Virus record (IMG/VR): IMGVR_UViG_3300045988_118025 | Coordinates: 3,783 to 67,782 of that record | Source of the DNA: a virus | Length of the DNA: 64,000 nt | Strand: one strand, 5' to 3' | Shown: piece by piece, positions 3,679-38,028 of the stretch | Position numbering within the stretch: the first letter of the stretch is position 1 | How the letters are laid out: each line of letters begins with the position of its first letter | Made by a program: the position numbers and the translations under genes | Notes under the pieces: generated by a model | The model's input: the letters and a program-made list of their open reading frames with translations, nothing else | Databases searched by the model: none | Told to the model about the DNA's origin: nothing

Positions 3679-3853
3679 AAAAGATTATGAGAAGTTTCTT
3701 AACTCAATATCTCCAGATAGAGACGATGAGGCATGGATCATTGGAGGAAAGAACAGGTATTGCGGTAGAGAGAATTATGGCACTATGATCAAAAGGTACG
3801 ATCCTATTGGTTTTAATGTAGGGTACAGAGAGTGGGTGAAACAGCCAGAGTAA
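3665..3853 (+). CDS. hypothetical protein
   Basis: 62-aa ORF followed by GC-rich hairpin. Confidence 0.35.
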   Translation: MGKSRKDYEKFLNSISPDRDDEAWIIGGKNRYCGRENYGTMIKRYDPIGFNVGYREWVKQPE

Positions 3854-23538: not shown

Positions 23539-24854
23539 TAGAACAGAAAATAAAAATATTGACAGATTTAGGGTTTGTGCCTATGGTAGAAGGAGAAGGA
23601 AATACGTTGTTTAGAATGAACGATGTTGTGATGTCGGTATCAGATCCTAATCAAACACCAGAGCAGTTAAAAAAGGAAGTTATGACTTTGATAAAGAATA
23701 AAGACATAGCCGAAAGAGGTGGACAGGTTCCAGTAGTTGAAGAACCGGCGCCTGAGTCAGAGCAGGCCCAGAAGGAGGAACCGGAAGCTCCGGAGGAAGA
23801 AGCCGCTCCTAACCCTGGAGAAGAAGATTTGAATCCGTTTACAGAAAATCAGGAAACGTTAGAGCCATTTTATATCTGTGATGAATTGAAGAAGATTGAG
23901 ACTCCCAAATTCGTAAGATTGACATTAGACGACAATCGTTTTTATGTAAGGAAGATGGATGATGGGACAGCCAAGATATATGCTTCGGTAACAACCTTAA
24001 TCAAAGACGGATTCGTAGATGATAAGACAGCACTTCAGGAATGGAAGCAAGAGATAAAGATGCTTGGTTGCAATCCAGAAGAGGTAGCGCAGTATGAAGC
24101 CGATAAAGGAACGATCATGCATTACCTATATGGATTGTATCTAATTGGAAGAGATATGGTCTTAAATCGAAGTTTTATAGTTAAAACCGTACAAGAAGGG
24201 AAGCTTAAGATATCGAAGAAAAATCTTGACCGATTCTTTAACAGCATAGATGATCTTGACGATATGATTGTTAGGGTTATGAAGTTTGCTAAGTTTTGTT
24301 CGGAGTATAAGGTTAAGCCGATGATGATTGAAAGAATATTATCATTAGAAGATTATTTGGTAGCTACGCCGATAGATGCGATGGTTAAAATGACATTCAA
24401 GTACAAAGAAGAAGGTTATTTTGGAGCCGTATATCAAAGGGCTACAGGGCAGTTCAAAAAAGGTGATCCGAAAAAGGAGGTAAGAGAAGTGGAGAAGGAA
24501 GAAGTGGTCATTCTTGACTTTAAATCGGGAGGAATATGGGAATCATACGCATTCCAATTAGAAGCTGAAAGAAGAATGGTTAAAGCATGGTACGGAATTG
24601 ATGCGCGTATTATGAACTTTTCTCCAAAAAGCACGAGCAGTAAAGGATATACGCTGAAAGAATGGACAGAAGATAGTGTAGCACTTGAAAAGGCGGACTG
24701 TGTGTTCCAACAAGGGATGTTGAATCACCTTAGAAAAGACAAGAGGTTCAAAGTGAGAAAAGGAGTGCTGAATATCAATAAGCCTTACAATGAAGAGGAT
24801 CATATTGTTGTATATGATATTGCTGAGGAAATGTCTAAAAGATTCGTAATATGA
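23535..24854 (+). CDS. PD-(D/E)XK superfamily nuclease-like protein with acidic/Pro-rich linker
   Basis: C-terminal region ...VATPIDAMVKM...EVVILDFKSGG gives a D...D-x-K arrangement typical of PD-(D/E)XK (YqaJ/lambda-exo/RecB-like) folds; N-terminal EEPAPESEQAQKEEPEAPEEE linker. Confidence 0.5.
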   Translation: MIEQKIKILTDLGFVPMVEGEGNTLFRMNDVVMSVSDPNQTPEQLKKEVMTLIKNKDIAERGGQVPVVEEPAPESEQAQKEEPEAPEEEAAPNPGEEDLNPFTENQETLEPFYICDELKKIETPKFVRLTLDDNRFYVRKMDDGTAKIYASVTTLIKDGFVDDKTALQEWKQEIKMLGCNPEEVAQYEADKGTIMHYLYGLYLIGRDMVLNRSFIVKTVQEGKLKISKKNLDRFFNSIDDLDDMIVRVMKFAKFCSEYKVKPMMIERILSLEDYLVATPIDAMVKMTFKYKEEGYFGAVYQRATGQFKKGDPKKEVREVEKEEVVILDFKSGGIWESYAFQLEAERRMVKAWYGIDARIMNFSPKSTSSKGYTLKEWTEDSVALEKADCVFQQGMLNHLRKDKRFKVRKGVLNINKPYNEEDHIVVYDIAEEMSKRFVI

Positions 24855-25084
24855 GTGATATTGTTATTCCTAAAGGAGATTATGTGGAAATCGTAAAACC
24901 GATATGTATCAATCCTTTTGGTGATTATTTTATTAACATCAAAAGGGGTTCAAGATTAAGATTATCGAAAGATTTGAAAATAGGGGATAAGTATGCAATA
25001 TGCATACTCACATCTTACGAGAAATATGGCAAGACTGTTAATGTGATAATGCCTATACTGGTTAGAAACACAAGAAGAGTATGA
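24851..25084 (+). CDS. hypothetical protein
   Basis: 77-aa ORF. Confidence 0.4.
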   Translation: MSDIVIPKGDYVEIVKPICINPFGDYFINIKRGSRLRLSKDLKIGDKYAICILTSYEKYGKTVNVIMPILVRNTRRV

Positions 25085-25431
25085 AAAGAAAAATTAGAAG
25101 AACCGGGGAGATAATAGACATAATTACCTTCAGCGGCTCAACTATAAGAAGCGACTATGACAAAATACAATTCTATGACAGTAACGGAAGTGTGATAAAT
25201 GAGAGTTTAAATTATTATCTCGATACCCTTCCTGTGGATGATGAAAACAAAGACGTAGACTGGGAACAACGTAGATTCGATCTTGTTAAGGCTTATTCTA
25301 TTGAGTTTATCAAAACACTGCATAGAAAAGGAGAGATAGATTGCGGAGTATATGTACCAGATGTGGTGTCATGGTCTATAACTATAGCAGATAGAATCAT
25401 AGAAGCAATGAGAGGAGTTCAAAATGCTTGA
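25081..25431 (+). CDS. hypothetical protein
   Basis: 116-aa ORF. Confidence 0.4.
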   Translation: MKRKIRRTGEIIDIITFSGSTIRSDYDKIQFYDSNGSVINESLNYYLDTLPVDDENKDVDWEQRRFDLVKAYSIEFIKTLHRKGEIDCGVYVPDVVSWSITIADRIIEAMRGVQNA

Positions 25432-29620: not shown

Positions 29621-29818
29621 ATGGAAAAGAAGGAATTTAAAGTAGGAGAAGTGTTTACTGCCGGACTTGTAAGATTAAAATGTGTGGAAGGTGATACATG
29701 CGATAGGTGTATATTTGAAAAATACAATTATTGTTCATGTACAGACATGATTATTGGTCCATGTGAACATATTGATAGACAAGATAACAAGGATGTTATT
29801 TTCATTAAAGCTGATTAG
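29621..29818 (+). CDS. small Cys-rich protein
   Basis: CVEGDTCDRC...YCSC...GPCEH. Confidence 0.4.
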   Translation: MEKKEFKVGEVFTAGLVRLKCVEGDTCDRCIFEKYNYCSCTDMIIGPCEHIDRQDNKDVIFIKAD

Positions 29819-29820
29819 GT

Positions 29821-30534
29821 ATGTACATCAATTTCAGACAACTTGCAGCATCAGACATGACTCCTAATGATCTTGCTAATCTTCTTGCCATAAGACAGAA
29901 GGATACGGTTATGATCGAAGCCATGCCGGAAGAAGATGCTGGGAGGTATATAGAGCTTGGCCTGGTTGAGAAATTAAAATCAGGCGTGATGAGATTGACC
30001 AACAAAGGAACGTCTTTTGTGAATTATATAGAGACTCCGGAAATGACAGACGAGGTTCTGGAAACGTTGAAGATTATGATAGGGATGTACGAATCATATT
30101 CAAAAGACATAGGTGTCAGCAGAAAAGAAGCGGAATCCAGATTGTGTTGGTTTATGGGTAACACCTCATTCAAGAAAGAGGTCATACTTCAGGTAACGGA
30201 ATCTTATATAGCAGAGTCAGGAGATTATACAATGAGCTTATGTAACTTTATATGGAAACCGCCTTCTCAGGCTTTTTCAGTCCATATGAACCTTAAAAAC
30301 TCAAAGCTCTTTGACTTAATAGCTGAAAAATTTAAAATCGCTACCGAGCCTTATTTGGAGTCTAAGAAGAATAAGGAAATGGATTGGTTGTTTGCCGTAT
30401 CTAAATTGCCTACGCCGCCGGCTAAAGGCAATCCGGATTATTTGTTTACCGGAAGTTCGGAAACAGACAAAGAGAGGTTGAAAAACATAAAAACGTATTT
30501 ATTTAACAAAATTAGAAAGCAATGGAAAAAGTAA
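29821..30534 (+). CDS. hypothetical protein (upstream of ACP-like gene)
   Basis: 237-aa ORF. Confidence 0.45.
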   Translation: MYINFRQLAASDMTPNDLANLLAIRQKDTVMIEAMPEEDAGRYIELGLVEKLKSGVMRLTNKGTSFVNYIETPEMTDEVLETLKIMIGMYESYSKDIGVSRKEAESRLCWFMGNTSFKKEVILQVTESYIAESGDYTMSLCNFIWKPPSQAFSVHMNLKNSKLFDLIAEKFKIATEPYLESKKNKEMDWLFAVSKLPTPPAKGNPDYLFTGSSETDKERLKNIKTYLFNKIRKQWKK

Positions 30535-30773
30535 GAATTAGAAAGATAATAGAGGATATAATTATTACTCAGTTTCTTAATTCGGAAATGGATATAGTTC
30601 ATGAAGAAGATGTGTCGTTTAAAGAACTTGGATTAGATTCTATTGATCGAATTGAGCTTGATGTGATGGTGGAACAAAAATTCAATATCGTTATTATTGA
30701 TTATGATACAGAATCCATCAAAGATATGACTGATCTTGTTTACAAAATAATAACAGAAGGATATGGGAAATGA
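30522..30773 (+). CDS. acyl-carrier-protein-like protein
   Basis: SFKELGLDSIDRIELDVMVEQKFNIVIIDYD aligns with the ACP core [32 protein letters not shown], including the DS(L/I) phosphopantetheine-attachment serine; 83 aa. Confidence 0.6.
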   Translation: MEKVRIRKIIEDIIITQFLNSEMDIVHEEDVSFKELGLDSIDRIELDVMVEQKFNIVIIDYDTESIKDMTDLVYKIITEGYGK

Positions 30774-31257
30774 TATAATTTTATGCATGGCTTTAATAGC
30801 GTCATTTGCTTTTGTTATACAGTTTTTATTGTCGATATTAGGATCTGATCTGGATACGGATATTGACATTGATAACGCTTCTGATTTAAGCATGTCTTTG
30901 TCGGACATCATATCATTCAAGGGCATAACACATTTTATTCTTGGATATAGCTGGACCACATACTTTTCGGGTTCCCATTTAGTAGGGGTTGTGATAGGGT
31001 CGTTTTTCTTTATCGTTTTGTTTTACGTATATAAATTACTTCTTAAGTTAAAACAAGAAATGGTGTACGAATGTCCGGAAGATTTGAATGGCAGAGAGGT
31101 GGAGATAGTATTTAGATCAGGGAAGAATCATTATATGGTAAATATTTCGAAAAATGGAAGACAGGAGCAAATGAGAGTAAGATGCTTGTCTGGAAAAACT
31201 TACAAAAACGGTGACAAGGCGAATATAAAATATGAAGAAGGAGAATTAAGTATCTAA
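30763..31257 (+). CDS. NfeD-like membrane protein (short NfeD/YuaF type)
   Basis: Two or three N-terminal TM helices, then a soluble C-terminus GREVEIVFRSGKNHYMVNISKNGRQEQMRVRCLSGKTYKNGDKANIKYEEGELSI consistent with the NfeD OB-fold. It sits immediately upstream of an SPFH gene, as in bacterial nfeD-floT operons. Confidence 0.5.
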   Translation: MGNDIILCMALIASFAFVIQFLLSILGSDLDTDIDIDNASDLSMSLSDIISFKGITHFILGYSWTTYFSGSHLVGVVIGSFFFIVLFYVYKLLLKLKQEMVYECPEDLNGREVEIVFRSGKNHYMVNISKNGRQEQMRVRCLSGKTYKNGDKANIKYEEGELSI

Positions 31258-31289
31258 TTTTTTTTATCAACAATTAAATTTTAAAAGTT

Positions 31290-32991
31290 ATGACAACAAT
31301 CATGTACGTGTCAGCTATCTTAGCTGTAGTGATTATTTTGACAATCATCGGAGTCTTATCAAGGTATCGTAGATGTAAGCCTAATCAGGTCTTGGTCGTT
31401 TACGGTAAGACAGGTGGGGAAAAGAAGTCGGCAAAATTATATCATGGTGGAGCGGCATTTGTCTTGCCTATTATTCAAAGCTATGATGTTTTGTCAATGG
31501 AGCCTATGCAAATAGATTGCAAGCTTACCGGTGCTTTGTCATCTCAGAATATTAGAGTAGATGTACCTACGACCATTACAGTAGCTATCAGTACAAATCC
31601 CGAAATCATGCAAAATGCGGCAGAAAGACTTTTGGGGATGGATACCGAATCTACTGAAAATCTTATTACGGACATCGTTTACGGTCAGATGCGTTTGATT
31701 ATTGCTGAAATGACAATCGAAAAACTTAATTCTGACAGGGATGAGTTTTTGGATAAGGCAAGAAAGAACATTGATAACGAGCTTAATAAGTTAGGTCTTT
31801 ACCTCCTGAACATCAACATCAGTGACATCAGAGACGAAGCCGGTTATATTATGAACCTTGGTAAGGAGGCTGAAAGTAGGGCTCTGAACGAAGCACGGGC
31901 TAATATCGAAGAACAGGAGAAACTGGGTGCTATTAAGATTGCTGTACAGCAGAAGGAGAAAGAAACGGCTGTAGCTAATACCAAAAAAGAACAAGAGATT
32001 CAAATTGCTTGTACTGAAAAAGAAAAGGAAACGATAGTAGCTGAAACGAAGAAAGAAAAAGAAATAGCCTTGGCTTTAACCGATAAAGAGAAACAGATCG
32101 GCGTAGCTCAAGCAGATAGAGACAGGGCTGCGGTTATCGCAAAAACTTTAACCGACAAGGAATCGGCGATTGTAAGATCTAAGGCAGAACTTGAAGTAAA
32201 TAAAGCCGAGGCTGAAAGGATGGAAGAAGTCGGAAAGAATAAGGCTGAAGCTGACAAGGAAGCAGCTATAGCAATACAAGACTCTGAAGCTCAGATTAAG
32301 AAGGCTGAGGCTGAGAAAAATGCGTCTATAGGATACAACAATGCCCAGAAGGAGGTTGCTGTGTCAGTATCAGAACTACAGATTATCAAAGCTCAATCAG
32401 AGAAGAAGGCCGGAGAAGAAAAAGTTAAATCGGAAGCGGCTGTAAAAACAGCAAAAGAGCTTGCCGACAAAGAAGTGGAAGAAGCTAAGGCTAAGAAAGT
32501 TCAGGCTGCGCTTAAGGCTGAAAAGATTGTGCCGGCTGAAACCCAGAAGGAAGAGGCTATATTACAAGCTGATGCTGAGGCAGAGAAGATCAAACGCCGG
32601 GCTGAGGCTGAGGCGGCAGCACATTTGGCAAAAGCTGAGGCAGAGGCAAAGGCTATTCAGATGAAACTGGAGGCAGAAGCCGAAGGTAAGAAAAAAGTCG
32701 TTAATGGCAGAAGCCGACGGATTTAAGGCTATGGTGGAAGCAGCAGAATCCAATCCTCAGATCGCCATCCAGTACAAGATGGTTAATCAGTGGAAAGAAA
32801 TTGCCGGAGAACAGGTTAAGGCATTTGAGCACATTAACCTCGGAAATATCACGGTATTTGACGGCGGTCAGAACAGTACCGGTAATTTTCTTAACAATGT
32901 TGTTAAGACCGTCGCTCCGGCATTGGGAGTCATTGATCAGCTTCCGATTGCAGATACTTTAAAGAAGTTAAAAGGAGATGACAAAAAATAA
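31290..32991 (+). CDS. flotillin-like SPFH/band-7 protein (FloT/YqiK type); ORF interrupted by a +1 frameshift at A6 run 32691-32696
   Basis: N-terminal TM helix. The SPFH core matches B. subtilis FloT by eye (GGAAFVLPIIQSYDVLSM ~ GGGAFVWPVVQRAEVMSL; ISDIRDEAGYIMNLGKEAESRA ~ IKDISDKNGYLDALGMPRIAE). A long Ala/Glu/Lys coiled-coil repeat region follows. The flotillin C-terminal segment (FKAMVEAAESNPQIAIQYKMV...NITVFDGG) is encoded by the +1-frame ORF 32704..32991. Confidence 0.7.
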
Positions 32992-32998
32992 ATACAAT

Positions 32999-33020
32999 GG
33001 CCCAAGGTTACACTTGGGCC
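32999..33020 (+). terminator. perfect 8-bp hairpin after flotillin stop
   Basis: GGCCCAAG-gttaca-CTTGGGCC 8 nt after the TAA; no T-run. Confidence 0.3.
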
Positions 33021-33199
33021 TAATTGAAGAAGCAAAAGCAGCATTCATAGATTTCCTGCCGGCAGGGACAGTGATTTTAAGTGCTTTACTAATTACGATA
33101 TTTTTAACATGGATTTTGGACAAGATTTAGAACCAGAAGAACTGACCAAGCATTATGATCAGTGTTATGGAATTGATTTTGAAACAGAAGAAGAGGAGG

Positions 33200-35029: not shown

Positions 35030-35407
35030 ATGAAAAAAGAAGTCACAATCAAGGAAGATATGGCTGTGTTTTATAAAAATACAGGAAAAGAACTATGGAT
35101 TTATAACGGACTTTTCAGAAACAAGGTGTTGTCTATAAAAAAAGATAAAGCCATTATCATGTGTGAAACTGATGCTGAATATGCTGTACTGATAGAAGAT
35201 AATCAGTTTATTGCCGTAGCAAAAAACATGGATTATGATTACTGCTGCGCATTCACATTAGGTAATGCCGAGGCTTATGGGGATCGTATGGGCATATCGT
35301 GCAGTGTATGCTTGCTTGAAGATAACGAAGATAAAGCAAGGGAGATGTTGAAAGAGGCGATAATAGAACTTTCAAAAAACAGTAAAATAGATTGCGATGG
35401 GCTTTGA
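35030..35407 (+). CDS. hypothetical protein
   Basis: 125-aa ORF. Confidence 0.4.
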   Translation: MKKEVTIKEDMAVFYKNTGKELWIYNGLFRNKVLSIKKDKAIIMCETDAEYAVLIEDNQFIAVAKNMDYDYCCAFTLGNAEAYGDRMGISCSVCLLEDNEDKAREMLKEAIIELSKNSKIDCDGL

Positions 35408-36818
35408 ACTTAGACCTTACCAAAAAGAGGCAGTAGATGCCGGGCTTAAGTTCCTTACAGGAAGATCTAAGAAGCCTGGCATAGAAGTCTTGCCGTGTGC
35501 AGCGGGGAAGTCTTTGATAATTGGCAAGATAGCTCATGAATTAAAAAGACCTATCCTTGTATTACAGCCATCTAAAGAGATTCTGGAGCAGAATTATGCG
35601 AAGGCTGTATCATTCGGTTCTAAACCTACCATATATTCTGCTTCATGTAAAAAAAAAGAGTTATCGGCTATGACTTATGCTACACTTAAAAGCATAAAGA
35701 AAGACGTAGCAAGGTTGAAAGATATAGGGATAGACACATTATTGATAGATGAGGTGCATAGCGGGTATTCTCCTGAAGAAGGTTCTGAATTTATGGAGTT
35801 TATGAACAGGTTCCCAGAGGCGAAGGTGCTGGGCTTCACCGCCACTCCCTGCCGCCTCCGAACCTACAGTTCCATGCTGGAAGGAAACTACAGCAAACTC
35901 AATATGCTGACGAAAGACGAACATAACTTCTTCAAGAAAATAGTTCATGTAACTCAAATACAAGAGCTAACTTCTCAAGGGTTTTGGTGTCCACTTAAGT
36001 ACGAACGATGGTCGTTTGATGAATCGGCTCTGATGTTAAACAGCACTGGAGCCGAATACACCAACGAATCTATTAAAGAAAGTATTGTACGAAACGGCTT
36101 AAACAACTCTATCTACAAGCGTCTTCTTCAGCTTATGAACGAGCGTAAAGCCATTTTGGTTTGCATGGATTCTATCGAATCATGTAATAGAATATCAGAG
36201 TTCATGAATGCCAGGATGGGAGCCATAACCGGTGTCGTAACATCGCTAACAACCAAAAAGAAAAGAGAGCAAATCATATCAGATTTCAAAGAAGGTAAGT
36301 TGAAGGTGGTTTTTAATTATTCAACGCTTGCTACCGGATTTGATTTTCCTGAACTTGATTGTGTGATGTTTGGTCGACCGACTTTCTCATATTCAACGTA
36401 TTACCAAATATTAGGCCGCGCCGTCCGCATCCATCCTGACAAGAAAGAGGCGCTGATTATTGATTGCTGCGACAACATGAGGCGTTTCGGTCGGATAGAA
36501 GACTTGACAATCGAGCAATTCCCTTCTAAGGGCTGGTGTATGTTTGCCGGAGATCAACTTCTGTCCAATATAAGGATGGGTGATATTATTACCAAAGACG
36601 AGATCCTTCGCCGGGCAGCCTCGCTTAAATCTGTGAATGGAGATGGTAGGAGAGAAGACGATCTTGACAGTATAATAATGTGGTTTGGAAAATATGAAGG
36701 AATTAGATTCAGGGACATACCGGTGTCGTATTTTAGGTTCTTGGCTGAGAATATGGCAGTAAAACCAGGAGATAGAAAAGAAAAGATTATCGAATATTAT
36801 AATAGGATAAAGGCATGA
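35397..36818 (+). CDS. SF2 DEAD/DEAH-box (ResIII-like) DNA helicase
   Basis: Q-motif LRPYQKEAV, motif I PCAAGKSLI, motif II LLIDEVH, motif III GFTATPCR, motif VI QILGRAVR. Confidence 0.75.
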   Translation: MGFELRPYQKEAVDAGLKFLTGRSKKPGIEVLPCAAGKSLIIGKIAHELKRPILVLQPSKEILEQNYAKAVSFGSKPTIYSASCKKKELSAMTYATLKSIKKDVARLKDIGIDTLLIDEVHSGYSPEEGSEFMEFMNRFPEAKVLGFTATPCRLRTYSSMLEGNYSKLNMLTKDEHNFFKKIVHVTQIQELTSQGFWCPLKYERWSFDESALMLNSTGAEYTNESIKESIVRNGLNNSIYKRLLQLMNERKAILVCMDSIESCNRISEFMNARMGAITGVVTSLTTKKKREQIISDFKEGKLKVVFNYSTLATGFDFPELDCVMFGRPTFSYSTYYQILGRAVRIHPDKKEALIIDCCDNMRRFGRIEDLTIEQFPSKGWCMFAGDQLLSNIRMGDIITKDEILRRAASLKSVNGDGRREDDLDSIIMWFGKYEGIRFRDIPVSYFRFLAENMAVKPGDRKEKIIEYYNRIKA

Positions 36819-37171
36819 ACAACAAGAGAAGAAAAAAAATATCAGATGTTGTCAAAAACGTAAATAAGTATAAAACAGATTTTGAATACATCAAATCAAA
36901 GTTATCGGAGTTGAAGTACAACATAAATTCAGCCAAGGATGATGTTGATATGATTTTAGATGAAGAGACTGAGGCGAGAGATAATATACCGGAATCGTTA
37001 CAAGACTCAGAAAGATATTGGGAATCAGATCAGGCTGTAACTGATATGGAGGAGGTGGTTGATGACATGGAAAGTATTATAAATGATATAGATGATGTGA
37101 TTTCGACCATAGATGGGAGCATTAAAACCATAAATGGTTCTATAAAAGTAAATTTGGTAGGAATAATGTGA
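36815..37171 (+). CDS. hypothetical acidic coiled-coil protein
   Basis: 118-aa ORF. Confidence 0.4.
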   Translation: MNNKRRKKISDVVKNVNKYKTDFEYIKSKLSELKYNINSAKDDVDMILDEETEARDNIPESLQDSERYWESDQAVTDMEEVVDDMESIINDIDDVISTIDGSIKTINGSIKVNLVGIM

Positions 37172-37223
37172 GTCCATAAAAACACTATAAGTAAAATTTA
37201 ACACTATAATTTTTTATTGATGT

Positions 37224-37251
37224 ATCATGATGTATATATTTGCATCATGAT
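37224..37251 (+). promoter_or_regulatory. inverted repeat ATCATGATG-N10-CATCATGAT enclosing a TAtaTTTG Bacteroides-type -7 box
   Basis: Perfect 9-bp inverted repeat arms at 37224-37232 and 37243-37251; the spacer contains TATATTTG (37235-37242); direct repeats ACACTATAA at 37182-37190 and 37201-37209. Confidence 0.45.
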
Positions 37252-37272
37252 ATTTTTTTAGTGTTATATTTC

Positions 37273-38028
37273 ATGAAAACAAATGTTACAATGGTATCGA
37301 AAGATCGGGAACTGTTTGGTGTTATAATTAAACAAGACACCAAAACATCATTTATGTCCTTAACAGACCTACAAGAGGCTTATACGAGAAAAAGGATAGA
37401 AATGGGATGGAATGAAAAGAGAATAGAGAACATTCTGTCCAATAAAGAAAGTGCTGAACGAATATACTATATCCTTGAAAAACAGGGATATACGATAGAA
37501 GCAGGATTTCCTGGTTTTATCCAATCTGTTGAAAAAGAATCACTTATAAAAGTGATGAAAAAGATGGGAGCTTATAAAACTATGGGAAGAGGAGAGAATA
37601 GGAGGACGATGTGCAATCCTTATATATGGGTTCTTGTAGCTATGGAGCTTAACCCTATGCTGTATGCTGAAGTAGTAACATGGTTGACGGACAAACTTAT
37701 TTTAAATAGGATAGAAGCAGGAGATAAATATAATGTCCTATCAAGGGCCATATCAAGATTTCCTGATGCTGATTATACGAGAATGGCTAAAGGCCTCAAT
37801 TGGATCGTTTTTAACGAACATGAGAGCATGATAAGAAACAGAGCAACTCAAGAGCAGTTAAAAGAACTTGAAATGCTTCAATCCAATCTTGCATTTTGTA
37901 TAGAAATGGGAACCATATCTTCTTTTTCCGATTTAATAAACATGATGGGGGCTATATATAAGAAAAAGTGGGGATCGGGAGCAGTATCTTCTAAAAATAT
38001 AAAATCTTCAAATAATGGAAACAAATGA
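37273..38028 (+). CDS. putative KilA-N-like DNA-binding protein
   Basis: Track ORF 37240 uses a TTG inside the promoter; first ATG is at 37273. N-terminal FGVIIKQDTKTSFMSLTDLQEAY weakly resembles the KilA-N/APSES core. Confidence 0.35.
   Translation: MKTNVTMVSKDRELFGVIIKQDTKTSFMSLTDLQEAYTRKRIEMGWNEKRIENILSNKESAERIYYILEKQGYTIEAGFPGFIQSVEKESLIKVMKKMGAYKTMGRGENRRTMCNPYIWVLVAMELNPMLYAEVVTWLTDKLILNRIEAGDKYNVLSRAISRFPDADYTRMAKGLNWIVFNEHESMIRNRATQEQLKELEMLQSNLAFCIEMGTISSFSDLINMMGAIYKKKWGSGAVSSKNIKSSNNGNK

Follow-up and report, generated by a model that had tools for sequence, protein, structure and literature searches.

The locus described here raises the question of what a flotillin gene is doing among the replication genes of a human gut phage, and of which neighboring genes belong with it. 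It lies in a stretch of viral DNA of 64,000 nucleotides (nt), hereafter the window (IMG/VR record IMGVR_UViG_3300045988_118025, positions 3,783 to 67,782), in a region that is 97% identical to the phage crAssE-Sib (OR575929.1, deposited under the spelling 'csAssE-Sib'), a complete human-gut phage genome of 151 kb. Within the epsilon crAss-like phages, crAssE-Sib belongs to the proposed genus Epsilonunovirus (PMC11054128). A preliminary description of the window, made from its letters alone, had read four genes as one operon-like module within the replication gene block; they encode a 237-amino acid (aa) protein (p237), an 83-aa acyl carrier protein (ACP), a short NfeD-type membrane protein and a flotillin. 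The setting is as described, with a DnaB-like helicase and a primase as upstream flank and a PD-(D/E)XK exonuclease and a helicase downstream, and the four genes are indeed co-directional. In this study, we show that the unit of inheritance is nevertheless two genes, the NfeD-like gene and the flotillin gene, and not four, and that the ACP and p237 genes are unlinked to it. Our preferred explanation, to which we assign a probability of about 60%, is that the window carries a selected but dispensable, host-related nfeD-like/flotillin pair, long resident in an epsilon crAss-like phage and with a proposed role at the membrane. We have high confidence in those parts of the explanation that concern the identity of the genes and their accessory character; a specific role in membrane homeostasis, argued by analogy, may have roughly one chance in three.

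The features of the pair, taken from a list of open reading frames (ORFs) and from alignments, are as follows (window positions):

30763-31257, + strand: NfeD-like flotillin partner (164 aa), overlapping the 83-aa ORF by 11 nt
31290-32726, + strand: flotillin N-terminal fragment (478 aa) with membrane anchor, SPFH domain, Ala/Glu/Lys-rich coiled-coil region (all predicted) and nine out-of-frame residues
32691-32696, + strand: A6 homopolymer, the +1 insertion site that splits the flotillin gene, from the alignment with crAssE-Sib (A5)
32704-32991, + strand: C-terminal part of the flotillin (95 aa), which holds the Flot domain and is shifted to the +1 frame with respect to the 478-aa ORF
32978-33130, + strand: p50 (50 aa), an ORF of uncertain coding status from the ORF list, with a C-terminal hydrophobic segment; annotated in crAssE-Sib
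31261-33090, no strand assigned: 1.83-kb presence/absence cassette (flotillin and most of p50), with short A/T-rich microhomology at its bounds

The evidence for a two-gene unit comes from the occurrence of the pair outside this phage lineage. A scan of bacterial genomes, one per species, with an alignment of 12 NfeD-like sequences (one of 70 sequences was too diverse) gave 105 relatives of the NfeD-like protein, and 80 loci were fetched, mostly from Bacteroides, Phocaeicola, Parabacteroides, Prevotella and Paludibacteraceae. At all 80 of these Bacteroidales loci the NfeD-like gene is followed directly by a flotillin gene within ~30-60 nt, and the bacterial proteins are 62-67% (flotillin, by tblastn) and 32-41% (NfeD-like) identical to those of the phage. 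Moreover, a second phage lineage, represented by 53 IMG/VR contigs, the longest of 193 kb, and by two contigs labeled 'MAG' (metagenome-assembled genome; 140 and 153 kb), carries a pair that is ~40% identical to the window pair, with the NfeD-like gene present and directly adjacent to the SPFH gene in 52 of the 53 loci. Neither an ACP nor a p237 homolog was found within 5 kb of the pair at any of the 80 Bacteroidales loci or, in the 5-6 kb searched across the bacterial and phage surveys, at any of the 53 loci of the second phage lineage. Thus, the pair recurs and the ACP and p237 genes do not accompany it at these loci. The two contigs labeled 'MAG' (L156, CALEBD010000406.1, 153 kb; L157, CALUTN010000183.1, 140 kb) lie in bins named 'uncultured Clostridium sp.' and 'Candidatus Gastranaerophilales', and are probably near-complete phage genomes that were mis-binned. 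It was also observed that some Bacteroidaceae, such as Phocaeicola vulgatus, contain a second, divergent NfeD-like/flotillin pair (loci L091-L096, L100 and L116), in which the partner has 177 aa and the flotillin shares 78% identity with that of the common type. Both types occur together in at least one MAG (that of L088 and L091), which suggests that the second pair is a paralog or a mobile-element copy.

The phage pair resembles the chromosomal operon of Bacteroidales in gene content, gene order and gap length, and in the sequence motifs of the NfeD-like protein given below. In trees, which were built by neighbor joining only, the window flotillin branches inside the Bacteroidales clade with the second phage lineage as the outgroup. 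Its identity to the Bacteroidales flotillins is ~71% over aligned columns, while these are 90-100% identical to each other, so that the phage copy lies well outside the range of divergence seen among bacterial copies. The phage pair differs further from the chromosomal operon in its position within a replication block, in the small ORF downstream and in its polymorphic presence. The GC content at third codon positions (GC3) of the flotillin gene is near that of its own genome in both phage lineages, and in the window it equals that of the neighboring phage genes, indicating long residence in phages.

It was less straightforward to place the 164-aa protein, which the preliminary description had called NfeD-type. 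This protein had no match in Pfam, PHROG, NCBIfam or a direct sequence search of the PDB, and the NfeD family PF01957 did not match it or any of 7 bacterial and phage homologs at E<=1; of the three Pfam families that had been expected at the locus, PF00550 (ACP) and PF01145 (Band_7) were recovered and PF01957 was absent. PF01957 did match one of the 70 members of the 164-aa family (E 6e-5), and the family profile gave E 0.28 against YuaF (2k14), in the right domain. While a word-indexed search with the 164-aa protein returned close phage relatives only, an exhaustive profile search gave a family of 405 representative clusters, mostly of ~160-180 aa, which is characterized by a QFILS helix, an acidic D-x-D-x-D loop, SFKG..HF, and LVGR preceding a beta-rich C-terminus. 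An AlphaFold2 (AF2) model with a predicted local distance difference test (pLDDT) score of 74 overall and ~85 in the C-domain has three long helices (residues 2-25, 52-69 and 72-101) and a six-strand barrel; hydrophobic segments span residues 1-30 and 67-96. In this model the C-terminal domain appears as a beta-barrel of the oligonucleotide/oligosaccharide-binding (OB) type similar to the solved C-domains of NfeD proteins. As the searches of Pfam, NCBIfam and the PDB were empty, the assignment rests on fold and synteny, and the protein is best described as NfeD-like by its predicted fold, its architecture and its neighborhood, with homology not proven by sequence. The absence of a significant Pfam match to NfeD or YqiJ also sets the pair apart from the short-NfeD/flotillin operons yuaF(nfeD2)-floT of B. 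subtilis and yqiJ-yqiK of E. coli.

The flotillin itself was readily recognized. The Band_7/SPFH family PF01145 matches residues 30-211 of the 478-aa ORF (E 4.6e-26; 92.4 bits versus a cut-off of 23.6), the Flot family PF15975 matches the separate 95-aa ORF at 32704-32991 (28.2 bits versus 27), residues 1-28 form a hydrophobic segment on the Kyte-Doolittle scale, and Ala, Glu, Lys and Gln make up 63% of residues 196-470, a composition on which the predicted coiled coil is based. The score against the NCBIfam equivalog for B. subtilis FloT (NF058507) is 142.8 bits, below the cut-off of 700, so that the phage protein is a member of the flotillin family and not a FloT ortholog at the equivalog level. 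The domains and the coiled-coil composition bear out a FloT/YqiK-type flotillin as it had been described, but the description overlooked that the gene is split. In crAssE-Sib the intact flotillin is a single ORF of 566 aa; the 478-aa fragment of the window is 99.6% identical to its residues 1-469, and the 95-aa fragment continues it over residues 467-556+. Alignment places one extra A in the window, with A6 at 32691-32696 versus A5 in crAssE-Sib, and consequently the last nine residues of the N-terminal fragment are out of frame and the Flot domain falls on an ORF of its own. An uninterrupted flotillin frame is found in crAssE-Sib and in 53 of 78 relatives and not in the window. Since all 49 related loci with a recognizable site have A5 and a single frame, A6 is a mutation rather than a recoding signal conserved in the lineage. 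At best, the window copy is predicted to make a truncated scaffold that lacks the C-terminal Flot domain.

How the lineage as a whole treats this gene was assessed in 80 IMG/VR loci fetched via p237, a sample to which one large dataset contributes most and in which near-identical genomes prevail; the denominators given here are the informative loci. The DnaB-like helicase gene is intact in 78 of 78, the exonuclease gene in 76 of 76, the NfeD-like gene in 77 of 79, the ACP gene in 74 of 79, and the flotillin gene in 53 of 78. The gene is wholly missing from 17 of the 25 non-intact flotillin loci, partly deleted in 2, frameshifted twice in 1 and interrupted by an amber codon in 5. All but one of the 17 (16 of the 80 relatives) lack window positions 31261-33090, with near-identical A/T-rich junctions. 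Such deletions were first revealed by fusion proteins in a protein database, and two further ones (L002 and L003), with different junctions and one of them at a GGTGGA microhomology, were confirmed on contigs. Both frameshifts of the double mutant (L021) are +1 in A-runs, and the amber alleles (L035, L041, L050, L070 and L071, at codons 490, 490, 527, 405 and 500) are all CAG to TAG changes that represent four distinct events. Across 11 loci from independent samples there are at least 8 different disruptive flotillin mutations; among them are premature stops caused by substitution and the loss of one G from a run of two. Of 10 contigs that encode an identical NfeD-like protein, drawn from Logan/ENA as a diversified sample, 7 have an intact flotillin. 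The flotillin-less alleles are scattered over the tree of the upstream flank, which points to repeated loss or recombination.

In the genomes that have it, intact flotillin is under strong purifying selection at the level of the replication genes. The ratio of nonsynonymous to synonymous substitution rates (dN/dS), calculated as simple Nei-Gojobori averages on recombining sequences, is 0.036 for intact flotillin copies, 0.054 for the NfeD-like gene, 0.032 for DnaB and 0.049 for the exonuclease. Strong constraint together with frequent, tolerated loss indicates an accessory function of conditional benefit. The p50 ORF, which is beyond the four genes of the preliminary description, is lost together with flotillin and belongs to the same indel cassette. 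It has a hydrophobic segment at residues 21-50 and no family match in Pfam or PHROG. Just past the flotillin stop and within the p50 ORF, at 32999-33020, there is a GC-rich hairpin with an 8-bp stem (GGCCCAAGgttacaCTTGGGCC) that may be a terminator or another regulatory structure; its position inside the ORF makes the coding status of p50 doubtful.

With regard to the amber alleles, each of the five mutated C residues is preceded by T (TCAG), and a cytosine-5 DNA methyltransferase is encoded a few kb downstream. Deamination at methylated sites is a possible origin of these alleles; chance is also compatible, as CAG is the commonest flotillin codon one transition away from a stop (20 CAG versus 9 CAA). 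TAG-to-Gln recoding was considered and is rejected for now: no suppressor tRNA was seen (crAssE-Sib encodes six tRNAs, for Cys, Arg, Gln(TTG), Met, Tyr and Lys, and the window lacks tRNA genes), and in those loci the neighboring genes for DnaB, the 65-aa protein p65, p237, the NfeD-like protein and the exonuclease have no in-frame stops.

The split flotillin of the window invites two other explanations. A homopolymer error of sequencing or assembly, with a genome that truly encodes an intact protein, would fit a single extra A in an A-run, which is a classic error site, and the frameshifts of L021 are of the same kind. However, the exact 478-aa product is found on 4-5 contigs, three further 478-aa variants with different sequence backgrounds occur on 3-6 contigs each, and 380 contigs (667 index blocks) carry a gene call for precisely the 95-aa product. 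The extra A is also the sole uncompensated single-base indel within an ORF in an aligned block of 11.8 kb around the module, in a census too noisy in divergent regions to give an assembly error rate, and an error in one genome would leave the many other disruptive flotillin alleles unexplained, among them the substitutions and the G-run deletion from independent samples. A one-off error is therefore unlikely. We find it still harder to believe that the split form is functional or adaptive, whether as a two-piece flotillin, as an N-terminal fragment acting in a dominant-negative manner on the flotillin of the host, or as a source of full-length protein restored by +1 ribosomal or transcriptional slippage. 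Many distinct alleles do break between codons 450 and 478 and keep the 95-aa ORF, and host flotillin, at the identity given above, is similar enough to co-assemble. This clustering, though, is expected for loci that were found by looking up the 95-aa product, and in less biased samples the breaks fall at codons 22, 233, 262, 267, 342, 405, 490, 500 and 527, besides loss of the whole gene. Moreover, the slippery site and the two-frame arrangement are unconserved among the 49 relatives with A5, and a run of six A is short for efficient slippage.

The two upstream genes have to be considered before the larger module can be judged:

29821-30534, + strand: p237 (237 aa), from the ORF list, a neighboring gene outside the flotillin unit
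30522-30773, + strand: orphan ACP-like protein (83 aa), overlapping p237 by 13 nt, a neighbor unlinked to the flotillin unit

In the preliminary description, the ACP was thought to point to acylation or lipid chemistry linked to the flotillin, and one may accordingly picture the four genes as a module in which the ACP feeds acyl or lipid chemistry to a phage NfeD/flotillin microdomain. The genes are adjacent and co-directional, the overlaps of 13 and 11 nt that join the first three make translational coupling possible, and the 83-aa protein is, as far as its sequence tells, genuinely ACP-like. The ACP core with its phosphopantetheinyl Ser had been correctly recognized: the PP-binding family PF00550 matches at 25.9 bits (gathering cut-off 20.8) and the 'acyl carrier protein' family PHROG 5934 at E 3.3e-8, solved ACPs match at E ~5e-6 with the Ser of LGLDSID aligned to that of LGADSLD in 3gzl, the phosphopantetheine site, and no full-length variant from 83 related loci departs from the GLDS core with its Ser. 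With 30.2 bits versus a cut-off of 70.45 it falls below the housekeeping AcpP equivalog TIGR00517. Nevertheless, we consider the four-gene module very improbable. Co-occurrence of the four genes is confined to one phage lineage, and a distant p237 homolog has no ACP, NfeD-like or flotillin gene alongside. The losses are independent, in that the ACP and p237 are kept in every flotillin-less genome, and all five relatives of 79 with a disrupted ACP (L026, L032, L037, L042 and L068; two TAA stops, two frameshifts and one truncated match) keep an intact flotillin. The ACP is under much weaker constraint than its neighbors (dN/dS 0.46, compared with the value for flotillin), and the annotation table of crAssE-Sib, in which 122 ORFs are hypothetical, lists no other acyl or phosphopantetheinyl gene. 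Nothing links the ACP and p237 to the pair except adjacency in one phage lineage, and the suggested lipid chemistry is not borne out. Least probable of all, to the point that we set it aside, is contamination by host DNA or a chimeric assembly, which the likeness of the flotillin to Bacteroidales chromosomal flotillins might suggest. The same genes with the same phage flanks are present in crAssE-Sib, in the IMG/VR loci examined and on many metagenome contigs of independent samples, and no fetched host gene is nearly similar enough for recent contamination. GC content, skews and GC3 are continuous through the region, and the breaks at 29.8 or 33.0 kb by which the preliminary description would have recognized a chimera were not seen. 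As the same arrangement is found in the complete 151-kb genome and relatives of the adjacent p237 gene occur in 202 IMG/VR stretches, the region is not chimeric.

For the selected, dispensable pair of our preferred explanation, it is possible to outline how a membrane role might work. Intact flotillin would anchor in the inner membrane of the host through its N-terminal hydrophobic segment, and the coiled coil and Flot domain would drive oligomerization into an SPFH assembly with the NfeD-like partner, as in known SPFH-NfeD pairs. The position of the pair in the replication gene block suggests that it is probably expressed with the early or middle genes. The phage flotillin may supplement or replace the roughly 65-70% identical flotillin of the host and keep membrane organization and the stability of membrane proteins favorable during infection. 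This would be an accessory, moron-like function that lies outside the replication machinery and whose benefit depends on the host or on conditions. Several points weigh against this explanation. The direction of transfer, from host to phage, is read from one kind of tree, the neighbor-joining tree mentioned above, and the membrane-homeostasis role would be carried over from homologs that are themselves a matter of debate as to function. For the frameshift, a homopolymer error confined to the one assembly is conceivable. In addition, the NfeD-like gene is unbroken in each of the 16 cleanly flotillin-less genomes and still under constraint there (nonsynonymous to synonymous polymorphism ratio, pN/pS, 0.11 versus 0.07), so that it may have a role independent of the phage flotillin.

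A more specific and rather unlikely possibility is that the pair acts as a conditional mimic of the host membrane scaffold, co-assembling with or replacing host SPFH assemblies, as the identity of the two flotillins might allow. If this were true, the pair might blunt membrane-targeting effectors of abortive infection, exclude competing phages, or retune FtsH-type proteolysis that bears on the choice between lysis and lysogeny. Selection differing among hosts would then maintain the presence/absence polymorphism, and in phages that lack flotillin, the host flotillin would be the direct target of the NfeD-like protein. PADLOC gave no defense-system match for any of six proteins and so lends no support to a known defense system.

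The mechanistic model for such assemblies, in which an SPFH oligomer sits on the cytoplasmic membrane together with an NfeD partner encoded in its operon, derives from SPFH-NfeD cages such as QmcA-YbbJ of E. coli, solved by cryo-electron microscopy, and FloA-NfeD of S. aureus (PMC13086221). The phage pair differs from those cages, which contain SPFH proteins of the stomatin or FloA type; YbbJ, moreover, is a long NfeD. Among phages, flotillin is uncommon, as the preliminary description had held: matches were found in 11 of 50,697 INPHARED records, several of which are short unannotated fragments. Only one besides that of crAssE-Sib is annotated as flotillin, in Vibrio phage KIT04 (LC487410.1), likewise a large phage (115 kb), but this flotillin shows 29% identity over half of the protein and the host belongs to an unrelated phylum. 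In GenBank, the crAssE-Sib genes are labeled 'acyl carrier protein', 'transmembrane protein' and 'flotillin family protein'; Table S1 of crAssE-Sib has the same labels except that the 164-aa gene is a 'hypothetical protein', and the text of the crAssE-Sib paper does not mention these genes (PMC11054128). NCBI MAG entries for the intact protein are named 'SPFH domain / band 7 family protein [Bacteriophage sp.]'. Among the papers that we could search, none discusses a flotillin of a phage, crAss-like or other. Gene labels in GenBank are thus already public; what is new are the two-gene unit, its affinity to Bacteroidales, the second phage lineage, the combination of selection with recurrent loss, and the defect in the window genome.

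SPFH/flotillin-NfeD pairs are widespread in bacteria and their function is still debated. The phage lineage that hosts the present pair is among the most abundant in the human gut, the commonest intact flotillin sequence being found on at least 1,000 public contigs, and its natural allele series (intact, truncated, deleted, NfeD-like only) could be used to probe the role of flotillin in phage and cell. The present analysis also corrects the attractive but unsupported idea of a phage ACP coupled to a membrane microdomain.

With regard to the neighboring genes, the ACP matches a family of phage ACPs (PHROG 5934, 'moron, auxiliary metabolic gene') and shares its Ser motif, but the 83-aa protein is very divergent from these and no partner enzyme was identified in the crAssE-Sib annotation. 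A tblastn search of the 50,697 phage records with the ACP returned crAssE-Sib only, and a protein database gave 947 matches at E<=0.001, of which the best 120 are all 95-100% identical to the query. p237 has no family match in Pfam, PHROG or NCBIfam; its model predicts an N-terminal MarR-like winged helix and a helical C-terminal domain without structural match. An Sfp-type phosphopantetheinyl transferase, for which the size of p237 and a KEA-like motif had made it a candidate, was rejected on the grounds of that model and of the lack of an ACPS match. Immediately upstream, at 29621-29818, a 65-aa Cys-rich protein is encoded that is 44% identical in L157 (3754-3960) and is the sole neighbor common to both flotillin-bearing phage lineages; its dN/dS is >1, calculated from very few sites.

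Other variable elements were observed around the locus. Several relatives have an insertion of ~355 bp between 33166 and 33168, just downstream of the flotillin cassette, and further indels or replacements among relatives affect 24852-25403 and 37167-38014. Small cassettes that are present in some relatives and absent from others give the replication block a mosaic structure. At ~42000 of the window both GC and AT skew change sign, with + strand genes upstream and - strand genes beyond, as also in the annotation of crAssE-Sib. Lastly, the downstream helicase has 473 aa in the window (35397-36818) and 817 aa in L002 (7882-10335), where it matches the intein / homing endonuclease model Hom_end_hint; the extra length resembles an insertion of the intein type, for which this lineage is polymorphic.

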